From Escherichia virus TH47: 64,000 nt of DNA. Each line of letters opens with the position of its first letter. The stretch's first letter is position 1. Location: the sequence record MT446416.1, one strand, 5' to 3'. Below are positions 16,715 through 37,156 of the stretch, one piece after another. The notes under the pieces are model-generated. The model ran no database searches. It was not told the DNA's origin and worked only from the letters and a program-made list of their open reading frames with translations. A program made the translations under genes and the position numbers.

Positions 16715-17509
16715 TTAAATTACATACGGTTTATAGTAATGAATCTCGTTTGCGATTGCAGTGAAGACTTTATTATTAAATCTTTCACCATAATCACGAA
16801 GTGATTCACCTTCTTCGCTTTCAATGAAGTAATTATATACTGGTAGACGTGCGTTGTCAACACCTATAAATGATTTCATGTAAATTTGTACTAAACGATT
16901 CATTCCTTCATTTAAGCATTGCACCTCAAAGTGCTTGATACCTTTGTCTAAATGTTTGAATGCATTAATGATACCACGTTTAAAATCACGCTGCATAGTA
17001 CTGAATAAATTCTCAGGGAACACGGTAATAGGTGACATTGATTTAAGAATGTATGTATCTTTGGCATTCTTAATGTACTCAATAAAGCAGTAGTTAACGT
17101 CCGGCTCAATTGAACGATCCGCGTTATGATACCAGTGTTTAAACTCACTGTACTCAGCAAACTTATGCTGGCGTAATGCGTTACAATCCTCACACAGTGC
17201 AGTTATGTTCTCTTTATCATTACCGCCCTGGAGACAGTCCAGTACATTATGGTCTAACGTCATGCGTACAAGGCGTTTACCTTTAAGTACATAAGGTCTG
17301 AATTTATAACGGTCTTTAGTACTGTGCTTATGTAAAGTGAATACCACATTGGATTCACCACAACAATCACATTTAAAGCCATCACGTGACATTACATGAA
17401 TGAGTTTTCGAGTATTTGGGCCGAACTCAGATTTAGTAATGTTGCCGACAATTTCTGATGGGTCGTAGTATTTTGAATTCCGGCGAATCAATTCATCTAT
17501 AGTGCTCAT
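16715..17509 (-). CDS. HNH endonuclease (264 aa)
   Basis: Cys cluster CDCCGE and HNH-like block DHNVLDCLQGGNDKENITALCEDCN. Confidence 0.6.
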   Translation of the reverse strand: MSTIDELIRRNSKYYDPSEIVGNITKSEFGPNTRKLIHVMSRDGFKCDCCGESNVVFTLHKHSTKDRYKFRPYVLKGKRLVRMTLDHNVLDCLQGGNDKENITALCEDCNALRQHKFAEYSEFKHWYHNADRSIEPDVNYCFIEYIKNAKDTYILKSMSPITVFPENLFSTMQRDFKRGIINAFKHLDKGIKHFEVQCLNEGMNRLVQIYMKSFIGVDNARLPVYNYFIESEEGESLRDYGERFNNKVFTAIANEIHYYKPYVI

Positions 17510-17741: not shown

Positions 17742-17947
17742 TCTGTTTGTCCAACAATTAGTTTTTCTTTAGTATTACTATTGTAACACCACATTAATTC
17801 TTCACCAACTGTTCTAAGTGAAACGCTGTTTACTTGTTCATACGTACTGTCACGTACTGCAATGCATTGATTCATTGAATTCATTGGGGTGATTTGTACA
17901 CCAGATTGTGGTGAAAGAGCAATAATTAAAAAGATTACTGAATTCAT
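17738..17947 (-). CDS. hypothetical protein (69 aa)
   Basis: gaggaa SD upstream; preceded by promoter 18012..18040. Confidence 0.45.
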   Translation of the reverse strand: MNSVIFLIIALSPQSGVQITPMNSMNQCIAVRDSTYEQVNSVSLRTVGEELMWCYNSNTKEKLIVGQTE

Positions 17948-18011
17948 TAGATATTCCTCAATGGTTAATCATCCATCTCTTCGAGATGTCTGTTCGCTTC
18001 TAATACTACGT

Positions 18012-18040
18012 ATTCTACGCGAATGAATCATAACTGTCAA
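18012..18040 (-). promoter_or_regulatory. sigma70-type promoter (TTGACA-N17-TAGAAT)
   Basis: Minus-strand reading ttgacagttatgattcattcgcgtagaat upstream of gene 17738..17947. Confidence 0.45.
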
Positions 18041-18552
18041 GGACTTTTAATATTGACGGGATTTGTTGAGGACTTTTTCATCCCCCGCAGGGGAATGATG
18101 GTAAGAAAAAAGAGACAATTAAGTCTCTTCTTGACGCTGATGGCATCGGATTTTATTGTATCGTGAATTTAGGACGGATCTATATTGTAATAAATCAATC
18201 GCAAACGGAAGCGGGTTGCTCTGTTTCTCCCTATCACGGTCATATGCAACGGTCACTGGTCTTTTCATCCCAGCACTCACTTAAAACTCCATACAATCGA
18301 AGTTCAAGCTGTCTTATAATAAGACTCCCTTAGCAAATCTGGTAAGGTGCGATCCTTATATGTCTATCGAGGAACTCTCGGTATGCTTATCGGAGTTCTT
18401 TATACAGCCGCATTGCCGTGAGGGGTTCAAACTATGCCCACATCTAACGGGTTTCTTTTGCTGTTCGTTCTGTAGCACAACTCATCTGCCCTCTACATTT
18501 TCGAGTGGTTCAGGATTATTTTATTCTAAATGAGCTACAGGTTTTTTTTATT

Positions 18553-19197
18553 CTAAATTTTACTTAATGACAAAGTAATACGTCCATTAAGTAAATCATC
18601 GTTTAAAACATCAATTCTACGTTGTAAACCTTTTATTACACCATCTGACACACTATTATTATATTTTTTAATAATATCAGAAAGATGTTCTTTTTTGGCT
18701 AATTGCCATTTTGCATGAGCTTCTTCAGGTGTGGGAAATGCACCCAAATGATATTTTTTCTTATTTTTGTAAATTTGTGCATAATATGGATTTTTGTATT
18801 CAAAACTCATATTTTTTTTAGGTATATGATAACAAACACCAAGTGGTTGATTTTTATTATTTTTGTCAATGATACACATGTTTATTTCATTTGGTACAAA
18901 TGAACACGTTTCAGGAGAATACATTTTTTTATTACCGTCGATTAAATCTTTATCTAATTCATAACCATCTTTGTAATTTGATATATACCATTCTTTAAAT
19001 TTAGAGTATGTTTTCCATTCATCACATATAATAACTCCTATATATGTTTTATGAGTTTCTTGATACTTTTCAGAATAACATCGTTTTATCATATCTTTCC
19101 ATGTATAATAAACTTTACTATAAACACTTTTTTTTGTGGAATCACCTTTAACATCATTGATTCCAAAACCATATACCAATTTCATATTAAATTCCAA
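18553..19197 (-). CDS. free-standing homing-endonuclease-like protein (214 aa), degenerate HNH/AP2-like
   Basis: ELDKDLIDGNKKMYSPETCSFVP resembles an HNH core with the first His replaced; YHLGAFPTPEEAHAKWQLAK resembles an AP2-type DNA-binding segment. Confidence 0.4.
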   Translation of the reverse strand: MEFNMKLVYGFGINDVKGDSTKKSVYSKVYYTWKDMIKRCYSEKYQETHKTYIGVIICDEWKTYSKFKEWYISNYKDGYELDKDLIDGNKKMYSPETCSFVPNEINMCIIDKNNKNQPLGVCYHIPKKNMSFEYKNPYYAQIYKNKKKYHLGAFPTPEEAHAKWQLAKKEHLSDIIKKYNNSVSDGVIKGLQRRIDVLNDDLLNGRITLSLSKI

Positions 19198-19246
19198 TTA
19201 TGGTTATCATACTAACATTGTATCACACTTTCTAAATTTGTCCCAT

Positions 19247-19280: not shown

Positions 19281-20246
19281 TTAAAAATCTTCGAACTCAT
19301 AACCTTTTGTCTTAACCATCTTACGCAGTCGTTCCATTGCTTCAGAGTACTTACGGTGCAATGAAGAACGAGCAGTCATGACCTTACCCTTCTCATCTTC
19401 AAAACCACTCTCAATGATTTCTCGTAGCGTTTCTGGTTCAGAATAAGAACCAATACCATGTACACGTTCAATCAATTCACGGTCTTTGGCAGATAGGTTA
19501 CTCATCATTTCTGCAATACTTTGTACCAGTGGGGTACTGACAGTTTCTACGCCTAAGTTGTAATCAGGTTCAACTGAAGTAACAATGTCAGATAATGTAC
19601 TTTCTGAATCATTACTCATTTTCATATTCAATGCTACATAAGTGTTATTGTAAGTTAGACAATTCTTAACGTGTTGAATCTCAATACCAGTCTCTTTTGA
19701 CACCATCTCAGGAGTTGGGTATTTACCATGTTTCCTTTGATACTCTTCAACACAACGTTTCACATAAATGTTATTAACACTCATATAACGTGGGAAATGC
19801 ACTAGATAATTAGCATCTGCACTTTCGTTATAGATTGTCATGTACACAGTTGTTGTTGCATATGTAATGAACTTAACATTTTTGGTAGTGTCGAACGTAT
19901 GAATTGCTCGCATTAAACCTTCAACACCATAAGAAATCTTATCTTCAAATGGGATAAAACATGTACATTTACGTGCAACACTTACTACCATTGGATAGTT
20001 GTAGCGAACCAAAAGGTCAATGTTCTTTTCAACGTCAATACCATCACGCACTGCTTGGATGAGCATTTCATTCGTTATACCTTTAGGGCGAGTTAAACTG
20101 ATACCTGTTTTTGGTTTCTCAAACTTGTGACCGTCATGTTCTTCTTCATCAACCGAATCTAGAGCCTCTAAGACGTTGACTTCTTCACTAGCAAAACACT
20201 CATCCAGTACTTCTTCAAAAATTGCATTTAAATCAAGCTTTTTCAC
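19281..20246 (-). CDS. sigma70-family RNA polymerase sigma factor (321 aa)
   Basis: Region 2-like LVRYNYPMVVSVARK...FITYATTTVYMTIYNE and region 4 HTH-like LSAKDRELIERVHGIGSYSEPETLREI...ERLRKM. Confidence 0.7.
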   Translation of the reverse strand: MKKLDLNAIFEEVLDECFASEEVNVLEALDSVDEEEHDGHKFEKPKTGISLTRPKGITNEMLIQAVRDGIDVEKNIDLLVRYNYPMVVSVARKCTCFIPFEDKISYGVEGLMRAIHTFDTTKNVKFITYATTTVYMTIYNESADANYLVHFPRYMSVNNIYVKRCVEEYQRKHGKYPTPEMVSKETGIEIQHVKNCLTYNNTYVALNMKMSNDSESTLSDIVTSVEPDYNLGVETVSTPLVQSIAEMMSNLSAKDRELIERVHGIGSYSEPETLREIIESGFEDEKGKVMTARSSLHRKYSEAMERLRKMVKTKGYEFEDF

Positions 20247-20268
20247 TTACTTCTCCTAATGAATGAAA

Positions 20269-20766
20269 TCAAAAACGGTATACATTAATATTATCATCGG
20301 TATAGATATCATGGTTATGAACATCCATGAAGGTATCAAATACCTTATCAAGAAGAGTATTATACTCTTCATGTAATGCTGCATCAAGCATGTATTCACC
20401 ACCACTACCCATAAAGAATGTATAATCATTATGGAGATAATCAATCTTCTTGGTAAACTTACCCTTATTAATGATTAAGTGAATGATGTAATCTTTTGAC
20501 ACAAGAACACAGTGACAACTCGCCTTGCGGTCTGGTATCACAGTCTCTTGTGAAATCAAGTATCTCAGTACTTTGTTAATTTCACTAACCTCACCGCAAG
20601 CACTAAACAGTCGGTCGTGTACATACAATGTTTTTTGTGAAACTACACCATAACTAAGTTTTGGCTTCAACGGGAATAGGTTCAAAAATGAACGCTGCTC
20701 AGTTGATGTCACTTTTGAATCAGTAAGTAATACTCCCAAGCGTTTATCAATATAAACAGTTGTCAT
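20269..20766 (-). CDS. hypothetical protein (165 aa)
   Basis: ORF; preferred over the overlapping 20256..20444 frame. Confidence 0.5.
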   Translation of the reverse strand: MTTVYIDKRLGVLLTDSKVTSTEQRSFLNLFPLKPKLSYGVVSQKTLYVHDRLFSACGEVSEINKVLRYLISQETVIPDRKASCHCVLVSKDYIIHLIINKGKFTKKIDYLHNDYTFFMGSGGEYMLDAALHEEYNTLLDKVFDTFMDVHNHDIYTDDNINVYRF

Positions 20767-31960: not shown

Positions 31961-32076
31961 ATATTATGGAGTATTTATATGTAAGAAAAATATCATTTTT
32001 GAGGTCAATATCAGAATTGCACTGATTATTCAGACTTACAAGGTCCGTGTTATACTCTTTTAACTAATCGACCTGA

Positions 32077-33366: not shown

Positions 33367-33439
33367 TGCGACTCTGGAGGAACTCGAATCCCCAACCAAT
33401 TAATTAACAGTTAATCGCACCACCAATTGTGCTACAGAG
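33367..33439 (-). tRNA. tRNA-Asn (anticodon GTT)
   Basis: Manual cloverleaf: acceptor GACTCTG/CAGAGTC, D-stem GCAC/GTGC, anticodon stem ATTAA/TTAAT with loop CTGTTAA, T-arm GGGGA-TTCGAGT-TCCTC, discriminator G. Confidence 0.7.
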
Positions 33440-33449
33440 TCATAATTAT

Positions 33450-34154: not shown

Positions 34155-34507
34155 TATTTTATTTCAAAGTTTGTGAGCCATCTGTGAGTCGAACACAGTA
34201 CCTAACGATTCGTATAATCTATAGTTTTCACTATAGTACGGACTATATCATCATCCCATAGGGATGCCGGACGCTAATGATGTATTACACAGTAAGATCG
34301 TACTGTACCATCTAGTCTCTGCACCTTCCCAATACGCTTATTGGGCTTGGCTCAGGATTGTCATCACCATTACGTGTTAAGATTTCCCTGAATTCATCCA
34401 GTTTTTCAATCACCATTACTGATGAAAGTCACCATTGTCGATGAGTCGTTTGCTCTAACCACCGTGAGCTAATGGCCCGATTTGGGTGTTCCTAGTGTTT
34501 CATTATT

Positions 34508-34721
<214 letters not shown>

Positions 34722-37004: not shown

Positions 37005-37024
37005 ATCCTTAATATTATATTTTA

Positions 37025-37096
37025 TAAAGGGCCGGAGAATCGAACTCCGATTGGATTCTTAGAAGGAATCTGTTTTATCCATTAAACTAGCCCCTC
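37025..37096 (-). tRNA. tRNA-Arg (anticodon TCT)
   Basis: Manual fold: D-stem GTTT/AAAC, anticodon stem GATTC/GAATC with loop CTTCTAA, T-arm CGGAG-TTCGATT-CTCCG; acceptor GAGGGGC/GCCCTTT needs two G-U pairs including 1:72. Confidence 0.5.
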
Positions 37097-37156
37097 AGTA
37101 CTAATAATTATATCACATCTTTGTGGTCTGTCCCAGAAATTGTGATATAAAAGTTG

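Follow-up and report, generated by a model that had tools for sequence, protein, structure and literature searches.

An unannotated RNA gene in an intergenic gap of Escherichia virus TH47

The 64,000-nucleotide stretch of Escherichia virus TH47 DNA analyzed here (record MT446416.1; called the window below) belongs to the Rak2-like jumbo myovirus group, and its nearest records are the Asteriusvirus phages ph0011, EC.P1, 121Q and PBECO4. Between positions 17948 and 18552 the window contains an intergenic gap, located between an open reading frame (ORF) for a homing-endonuclease-like protein (18553-19197) and small downstream ORFs (from 17947 leftwards), and all genes around it are encoded on the minus strand. 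It holds one of the paralogues of an RNA gene family that had so far gone unannotated. A first-pass annotation, made from the letters alone, had described the gap as free of ORFs, richer in G+C (GC) than its surroundings, lacking tRNAs and carrying two short hairpins and a promoter, and these descriptions were borne out. On neither strand is there an ORF of 60 amino acids or more between 17948 and 18552, the longest ones (both strands considered) having 57, 56 and 53 amino acids, and the GC content of 0.41-0.45 at 18100-18500 compares with 0.25-0.28 in the ORF 18553-19197 and with ~0.34-0.37 on the other flank. Both hairpins are present, ccccgcagggg at 18083-18093 and gagacaattaagtctc at 18112-18127, and a promoter scan recovered the TTGACA-N17-TAGAAT promoter on the minus strand with 11 of 12 matches. 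This promoter (18040 to 18012) serves the small downstream ORFs and adjoins the RNA gene, from which it is separate. ARAGORN found four tRNAs elsewhere in the window and neither a tRNA nor a tmRNA at 17948-18552. The proposal of a structured RNA for the gap is strongly supported: the sequence is conserved, base changes compensate one another, G·U pairs are specific to one strand, and the gene has a promoter of its own and ends in an intrinsic terminator. Folding of the minus-strand RNA from 18530 to 18100 gave -108.3 kcal/mol (z = -2.8), which was better than each of 100 dinucleotide shuffles.

The RNA gene is dispersed in several copies over jumbo phage genomes

When the minus strand of the gap was used as query in a sensitive blastn search, 280 places in 69 phage records were matched, each over ~480 nucleotides (nt) and with identities down to 64%. 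The hosts of the matching phages are Escherichia, Salmonella, Klebsiella, Erwinia, Yersinia, Xanthomonas, Pectobacterium, Cronobacter and Serratia, and Rak2-like jumbo phages carry 4-6 dispersed copies per genome. Phage 121Q has four full-length copies, at ~90.6, 193.0, 247.8 and 326.9 kb, all of them on the same strand and surrounded by genes that are unrelated from copy to copy. Both genes that neighbor its copy B are on the opposite strand, and the RNA unit is therefore autonomous of its neighbors. A single diverged full-length copy was found in RaK2 (nhmmer E = 2e-40; 88.7 bits with the covariance model), directly downstream of the sigma-factor gene, which is the same position as that of the window copy. 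Further copies were obtained by scanning for the invariant core pattern, leading to 38 loci from IMG/VR (4 of them spurious and GC-rich), 43 from metagenomes and 3 from bacterial genomes. About 59 distinct 3' halves were recovered, and 32 full-length copies were aligned for the structure work. With R1, a covariance model built for the 3' core, every family member scored 72-112 bits; among these were RaK2, the bacterial copies and the members of a divergent subfamily. In the 64-kb window R1 gives a single match (101 bits, E = 3.9e-24). A second family copy was not found in the window by a self-repeat search, by nhmmer or by the covariance model. Also, no protein-gene neighbor is shared among the contexts of the 121Q paralogues, the window and the four bacterial islands described below.

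Over ~480 nt, most relatives match the sigma-adjacent window copy better with their copy B, which is non-syntenic, than with their syntenic copy A (the 121Q segments compared were 326672-327150 and 90332-91130), and the terminator of the window copy is absent from copy A of 121Q and EC.P1, which suggests, at the level of sequence, that recombination or gene conversion took place between paralogues. In one deposited record the element is labeled 'repeat_region'. Short hypothetical coding sequences (CDSs) have been annotated over the RNA, such as RaK2 ORF245 (locus L092, 1989-2195), 121Q gene 516 (locus L093, 3339-3494) and several others; as they are not conserved between copies, they are probably spurious.

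Compensatory base changes define a structured RNA on the minus strand

The covariation analysis against homologous phage regions, a check that the first-pass annotation had named, proved decisive and supports a structured RNA. For the 32 full-length copies, RNAalifold gave 69 pairs in 14 helices, and 41 of these pairs have changed on both sides. Paired cells amounted to 97.4%, compared with 80.9 ± 0.5% in shuffles, and none of 500 shuffles attained the covariation score (0.449 versus 0.153). When the 3' partners were displaced by 1-3 columns, pairing fell to 39-45% and the score to 0.06-0.09. At least one pair changed on both sides was present in 11 of the 14 helices, and once the variable alignment segments had been re-gapped by hand, one more covarying helix was obtained (GUGCUGG...CCAGU in the window). 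The helix cells contain 197 G·U as opposed to 16 A·C combinations, which identifies the minus strand of the window as the folded strand. Compensatory changes beyond those of the controls and a strand-specific excess of G·U pairs, which are the general marks of a structured RNA, were thus both observed. A long-range triple (138-140/697-699) never varies and so is without covariation support.

A conserved reading frame was not found in the family, as the longest stop-free stretch shifts in strand, frame and position between copies. A small-protein gene was rejected, no frame being kept in position across the homologues, and so was a conserved peptide that would begin with the AUG behind the G-run (see below), its frame being broken by indels between copies. 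We conclude with high confidence that the gap contains a real structured RNA gene.

Anatomy of the RNA gene

In the relatives, the RNA gene starts with an extended -10 promoter, which is followed by a variable 5' hairpin, the body, a sequence called box 1, a terminator, a C-run/G-run hairpin and a second sequence called box 2. The RNA measures ~410-480 nt in the relatives and about 410-440 nt in the window. Its ~400-nt body alternates invariant single-stranded blocks with variable stems, and the invariant blocks include GAAAAUGUAGA, CAGAUGAG, GAAACCCGUUAG, CACGGCAAUGCGGC, AUAAAG, GAUAGACAUAUAAGG, GCUAAGGGAG, GACCGUUGC and GAUAGAGAGAAACAGAGCAACCCGCUUUCG. The family promoter, tGgrACr-N15/16-TGnTATAAT, is nearly invariant in full-length copies and stands before nearly every copy. 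Its -35-like element resembles the TGAAACG/-10 promoter class of phage CBB, which is reported to be concentrated upstream of a region that includes DNA-synthesis genes (PMC5259590). Of the 32 aligned copies, 24 have the terminator hairpin with its U6 tract, and each of the five stem pairs has changed on both sides. An own promoter and an intrinsic terminator on one strand, which are the marks of an independent bacterial-type non-coding RNA (ncRNA) gene, are thus both found, the promoter being displaced in the window by the inserted ORF. The features of the window copy and its surroundings are the following, in the direction of transcription.

19217-19244, minus strand: RNA-family promoter GGGACA-N16-TG-TACAAT with extended -10 element (promoter scan; alignment with copy A of ph0011, EC.P1 and 121Q)
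18553-19197, minus strand: inserted HNH-family homing-endonuclease-like ORF of 214 amino acids (phrog_953 'HNH endonuclease', E = 3.5e-74)
18515-18546, minus strand: degenerate remnant of the 5' leader/5' hairpin (alignment; the nhmmer match begins at 18546)
18106-18514, minus strand: conserved RNA body, from CCUGAACC to the U-run of the terminator (alignment, RNAalifold, covariation, folding z-score)
18130-18258, minus strand: 3' core domain GACCGUUGC...GAUAGGGAGAAACAGAGCAACCCGCUUCCG...UCACG...box 1, the most conserved part, common to RaK2, the bacterial-island copies and subfamily 2 (match to covariance model R1)
18130-18143, minus strand: box 1, CCAUCAGCGUCAAG, the 3' strand of the hairpin GAUGC/GCGUC; its sequence recurs as box 2
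18106-18127, minus strand: intrinsic terminator, stem GAGAC-UUAAUU-GUCUC (18127 to 18112) and U6 (18111 to 18106) (sequence; helix 13)
18079-18097, minus strand: C-run/G-run hairpin CAUUCCCC-UGC-GGGGGAUG, 19 nt, downstream of the terminator (helix 14; G-run invariant)
18053-18065, minus strand: box 2, CAAAUCCCGUCAA (family form CAAAUCYCGUCAR), a direct repeat of box 1
18012-18040, minus strand: sigma-70-type promoter TTGACA-N17-TAGAAT of the downstream ORFs, the top promoter-like site of the region, kept in the copy-A orthologues

The C-run/G-run hairpin is also found in RaK2, in subfamily 2 and in the bacterial copies. As a correction to the first-pass annotation, the conserved unit reaches past the terminator to 18053. 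Similarly, the suggestion of a phage small RNA was roughly right as to the kind of molecule and wrong as to its size, the RNA being a multi-helix transcript of ~410-440 nt. The post-terminator box was also considered as a promoter motif used generally by the phage and was rejected as such, since the exact motif occurs only once in the window and near-matches are at chance level.

Some groups of copies deviate from this layout. Six metagenome contigs (L061, L064, L077, L079, L080 and L083) form the divergent subfamily, which differs in its 5' domain but has retained the layout, the 3' core and the C/G hairpin; its boxes read ACGAAG or ACGCCGA, and the contigs encode a Thg1-like enzyme, DUF6267 and BNR-repeat proteins. 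One paralogue group of GAP32-like phages (L008, L011, L022 and L025) has an extra hairpin and a T-run between TATAAT and the 5' end of the RNA and lacks the 3' terminator hairpin, and the transcript boundaries of these four copies may differ from those of the others. Most copies outside Asteriusvirus (L005, L007, L009, L014 and others) carry a conserved module, UGAAUUGAG...GUAC...AACGAAAAUUCUUUGACAUUCGAAGAAUGGCAAAU, ~40-110 nt downstream of box 2. It contains TTGACA within an inverted repeat ATTCTT...AAGAAT and, judging from these motifs, could be a regulated promoter that moves together with the RNA gene.

An endonuclease ORF is inserted between promoter and RNA body in the window copy

In the relatives the family promoter sits directly upstream of the RNA, whereas in the window it is found ahead of the inserted ORF, intact (19244 to 19217) and just past the terminator of the sigma-factor gene (19276 to 19251). 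The 214-amino-acid ORF is absent from ph0011 and EC.P1, in which the sigma-factor gene is followed by an unannotated gap of 660-680 bp; the gap is therefore conserved and the ORF is an insertion in the window phage. The insertion point lies exactly between the -10 element and the RNA body. The last codons of the ORF overlap the former RNA leader (ATTAAGTAAAAT compared with ATTATGTACAAT, with divergence thereafter), and the 5' hairpin, which is variable among the relatives, has been lost. The homing-endonuclease neighbor reported in the first-pass annotation thus does adjoin the RNA, but as a recent insertion that the relatives do not have. The match of the ORF to phrog_953 covers only positions 194-403 of the 420 profile positions, which correspond to the C-terminal half, and a Pfam match was not obtained for it. 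Judged from these comparisons, the ORF is a gene of the homing-endonuclease family that has captured the RNA promoter, and the endonuclease is possibly truncated.

A second free-standing HNH endonuclease gene is located at 16715-17509 on the minus strand (phrog_35175, E = 2.7e-149), ~0.5 kb from box 2, and is also present in ph0011 and EC.P1. Farther away, the minus strand carries a tRNA cluster comprising tRNA-Thr (32001-32073), tRNA-Asn (33368-33441), tRNA-Ser (34632-34721) and tRNA-Arg (37024-37097), and within this region a group I intron at 34219-34532 (minus strand; Rfam Intron_gpI, 100.5 bits, E = 7.5e-25).

Box 1 and box 2 change in concert

Across the family, boxes 1 and 2 change together as direct repeats, being identical within each copy in at least six variants: TCGTCAG/TCGTCAG, CGTCAAG/CGTCAAG, CGACAA/CGACAA, ACGAAG/ACGAAG, ACGCCGA/ACGCCGA and CTTCAAG/CTTCAAG. 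The preceding AUC, ACC or ACG is likewise equal between box 1 and box 2. Several variants coexist within one genome, which makes a co-evolving trans-acting protein unlikely. The hairpin that contains box 1 covaries (GAUGC/GCGUC, GACGA/UCGUC, UCGAU/AUCGA, UUUCG/CGAAG and CGUUG/CAACG), and since box 1 is the 3' strand of this covarying hairpin, box 2 could compete for the 5' strand upon read-through. The identity between box 1 and box 2 reaches beyond the paired bases. A common complementary guide for the boxes was searched for by an alignment-wide helix search and within ±1 kb of each copy, and no consistent one was found; the sole option for a partner is a weak GGGAU/AUCYC pairing without covariation. 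A long-range helix GAUGAG/CUCGUC that would connect the 5' region to box 2 was rejected, the columns being invariant or varying without compensation.

The RNA does not belong to a known family

The 4,227 families of Rfam 15 were searched using the gathering thresholds together with E-value limits (E ≤ 10 in the gap and E ≤ 1 in relatives). The scan, for which the first-pass annotation had named models of group I introns, tmRNA and small RNAs, gave zero matches at E ≤ 10 within the gap (positions 17800-18700 were scanned). At the loci of seven relatives, nothing was found inside the element at E ≤ 1, and the four matches obtained were at chance level and all outside it. Families without a match include the group I intron, RNase P, tmRNA, 6S, SRP, GOLLD, ROOL, OLE, HEARO, raiA, RNAI, riboswitches and self-cleaving ribozymes. 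The group I intron of the window (100.5 bits) served as a positive control, being detected with this library, as were three tRNAs in other parts of the window. The core loop ACAGAGCAACCCGC presumably resembles a conserved segment of bacterial RNase P RNA; the Rfam scan was negative for it, and our conclusions do not draw on this likeness. Also, the element is not described in the searchable literature on CBB, UE-S1, fEgEco12, PA5oct or large phage RNAs. By every test applied here, this is a new family of large structured RNAs.

Full-length copies occur in small bacterial islands

The bacterial copies are full-length, occur once per chromosome and are located in small integrative islands. In Serratia fonticola (NZ_CP183218.1; L047), the copy lies between a block of genes for a large serine recombinase and two ParB/RepB-like proteins and the host genes rof-rof-tilS, and in Serratia sp. 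2723 (L046) it directly follows a large serine recombinase gene at the junction to host genes. In an Enterobacteriaceae metagenome-assembled genome (L045), it is found between host thiM/thiD and a CI-like repressor gene. Two of 5,426 complete E. coli genomes contain a copy, which is situated in the middle of a ~10-kb island beside ffs; in E. coli LR-29-1 (NZ_AP027515.1) it occupies positions 20001-20540 of locus L097. The ffs island carries IS3, recombinase genes and the candidate defence system PDC-M45. The resemblance of the islands to the phages is confined to the RNA part, and no proteins are common to the islands, or to the islands and the window. Among the 72,556 plasmids of PLSDB there were 0 matches at the sensitivity of blastn with word size 11. 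The islands could be satellites or defence islands related to infection by jumbo phages.

A trans-acting structured RNA is the favored explanation

We favor the explanation that the family encodes a stable, trans-acting structured RNA, a scaffold or ribozyme-like molecule of a complexity similar to that of GOLLD or ROOL, and give it a probability of about 0.55. In the relatives, each copy forms its own transcription unit, with an RNA of at least 15 helices and usually with the hairpin and U6 tract as terminator. In the window, the RNA would be made as the 3' part of the ORF transcript or from a weak internal promoter and would still end at its own terminator. Once folded, it would act in trans as a scaffold, either of a protein- or RNA-binding particle or in a ribozyme-like manner, and 4-6 gene copies with strong promoters would provide a high dosage. 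Because the same RNA is found in bacterial islands that share no protein gene, its partner would be a general one, either a factor that cells of Enterobacterales and Xanthomonas have in common or one shared by mobile elements at large. Alternative pairings among box 1, the C/G hairpin and box 2 are probable and would constitute a 3'-end switch that depends on read-through.

Large phage-borne RNAs as such have precedents. In PA5oct, ncRNA001-004 were defined by RNA sequencing as ORF-free transcripts of 236-619 nt, two of which are very abundant (PMC7318152). Like the window RNA, they are encoded in ORF-free regions of a jumbo phage of the same broad clade; unlike the members of the family described here, they are not homologous to it. 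GOLLD and ROOL (RF01998 and RF03087) are large 'ornate' RNAs of bacteria and phages that comparative genomics had revealed (Weinberg et al., 2017; PMC5737381), and structures obtained by cryo-electron microscopy are available for them (PMC12286853). The present family shares with them a length of more than 400 nt, many helices, many invariant unpaired nucleotides and its location in phages or prophages. It differs from them in that no sequence or structure match exists, in that the hosts of its jumbo myoviruses are Gram-negative, in that 4-6 copies occur per genome, in that the window copy does not lie beside tRNA genes, and in having a post-terminator module with concerted direct repeats. The RNA family together with its 3' module is without precedent.

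Several observations weigh against the proposal of a trans-acting structured RNA. The C/G hairpin and box 2, which are among the most conserved sequences, lie past the terminator, which is difficult to reconcile with a simple trans-acting RNA that ends there; this conservation suggests a read-through isoform or a role at the DNA level. The terminator hairpin is lacking in 8 of the 32 aligned copies, and the window copy, which is without its 5' hairpin and without direct contact to the promoter, may be impaired. In our analysis, no partner, ligand or catalytic motif was identified. The PA5oct ncRNAs had to be rejected as homologues, there being no nhmmer or covariance-model match and the family motifs being absent from them. 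The literature that could be searched contained no transcriptome of a close relative, and transcription of the RNA is predicted from its sequence.

Alternative explanations

The strongest alternative, clearly less probable than a trans-acting structured RNA and in our opinion unlikely, is that of an RNA-primed replication origin, which takes up the replication or packaging element listed in the first-pass annotation. In this model a structured pre-primer, comparable to ColE1 RNA II or to the T4 origins with their promoter and unwinding element, would form an R-loop or prime DNA synthesis at the G-run/box 2. The 4-6 copies would serve as multiple origins of the 350-kb genome, and the islands, as satellites, would make use of a borrowed origin. 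It agrees with the dispersal of the copies, all on one strand in 121Q, with their independence of the orientation of flanking genes, and with a conservation that runs past the terminator into the C-run/G-run hairpin and box 2, ahead of an AT-rich stretch. The G-rich RNA segment would favor R-loops, as is established for the ColE1 and mitochondrial origins, and since box 1 of the RNA has the sequence of box 2 in the DNA, the RNA could pair there with the template strand. Also in accordance with an origin are the resemblance of the promoter to the CBB class near the DNA-synthesis gene region (PMC5259590) and the occurrence of the element in integrative islands, which encode integrases, ParB-like proteins or a CI-like repressor and share no proteins. 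However, in 24 of the 32 copies (it is absent in 8) a strong terminator separates the RNA from the putative start site. A primer of the ColE1 type must run through the origin. As a structured transcript of ~0.5 kb that would be made from a strong promoter by host RNA polymerase and is followed by conserved G-rich/C-rich DNA, the RNA resembles ColE1 RNA II, but in most copies the terminator precedes the conserved DNA, an antisense RNA I was not detected, no homology was detected, and Rfam gave no RNAI or ColE1-related match. The T4 origins oriF and oriG consist of a middle-mode promoter and a downstream unwinding element, and there are several origins per genome. The family is similar to them in having several dispersed copies per large T4-related genome and an AT-rich stretch thereafter, and differs in a structure of ~450 nt that is conserved across genera; T4 origins are not known to have a conserved sequence or RNA structure in common. 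Further points against an origin are the 0 copies in 72,556 plasmids, the lack of a local GC-skew switch at the window copy, and the invariant unpaired nucleotides and ~15 conserved helices, which exceed the needs of known primer RNAs.

We regard as improbable that the RNA is a cis-acting leader, used for processive antitermination in the manner of HK022 put or as an attenuator, in which the boxes decide on read-through. Such a leader would fit the order of promoter, structured RNA, terminator and downstream genes that is seen in the window as well as in 121Q (copies A, C and D), and also the location of box 1 in a covarying hairpin and its repetition in box 2, since both could compete for one 5' strand. 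However, the downstream gene is convergent in copy B of 121Q, UE-S1 and Munch and also in the Serratia fonticola island, the downstream ORFs of the window are served by a separate sigma-70 promoter, the downstream genes are unrelated between copies, and the RNA is far larger than known antitermination RNAs.

Still less credible is a dispersed repeat that acts as DNA and not as RNA, such as a miniature mobile element or a signal for recombination or packaging. The multiple dispersed copies, the 'repeat_region' label in one record, the short internal direct repeats that flank hairpins and the signs of exchange between paralogues, copy A of the window being nearer to copy B of other phages, would be compatible with it. 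In contrast, compensatory changes keep ~15 helices, the strand-specific asymmetry of 197 G·U to 16 A·C is not predicted for a function of the DNA duplex, and the promoter and terminator on either side of the unit are conserved; neither terminal inverted repeats nor target duplications were seen at the element ends in the alignments, which were not complemented by a dedicated repeat search.

Finally, the group I intron remnant envisaged in the first-pass annotation, taken here as a former carrier of the neighboring endonuclease gene, can practically be dismissed: the RNA does adjoin an HNH-family endonuclease ORF, and a genuine group I intron exists elsewhere in the window, but the element remained below the 50-bit gathering threshold of Intron_gpI (RF00028) without a match even at E ≤ 10, the endonuclease ORF is absent from relatives that retain the RNA, and in all genomes the element is intergenic, lying between the sigma-gene terminator and the small ORFs, with its own promoter and terminator and no flanking exons.

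Implications

At the level of annotation, several deposited genomes carry 'hypothetical protein' CDSs over the RNA that are probably spurious and should be corrected. Very few large RNAs of this type from bacteria or phages have comparable covariation support, and GOLLD, ROOL, OLE and raiA have led to unexpected structural biology. The family is present in culturable jumbo phages of E. coli, Salmonella, Klebsiella and Erwinia and is therefore directly testable. Our more far-reaching proposal, which is tentative, is a new class of 'ornate' RNA common to giant lytic phages and small bacterial islands, without a dedicated protein gene, whose 3' device, made of two identical boxes on either side of a terminator and a G-rich hairpin, would either switch between RNA forms or re-anneal at box 2 for replication. 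If re-annealing were true, the family would represent the first RNA-primed origin module described for T4-related jumbo phages that is conserved and depends on structure, with the islands as candidate satellites exploiting it. Due to its multi-copy state, its promoter class, the conservation past the terminator and its presence in islands bearing defence or integrase genes, the RNA is a candidate for answering two questions, namely how replication starts in T4-related jumbo phages and which protein-independent RNA functions are exchanged by mobile elements.

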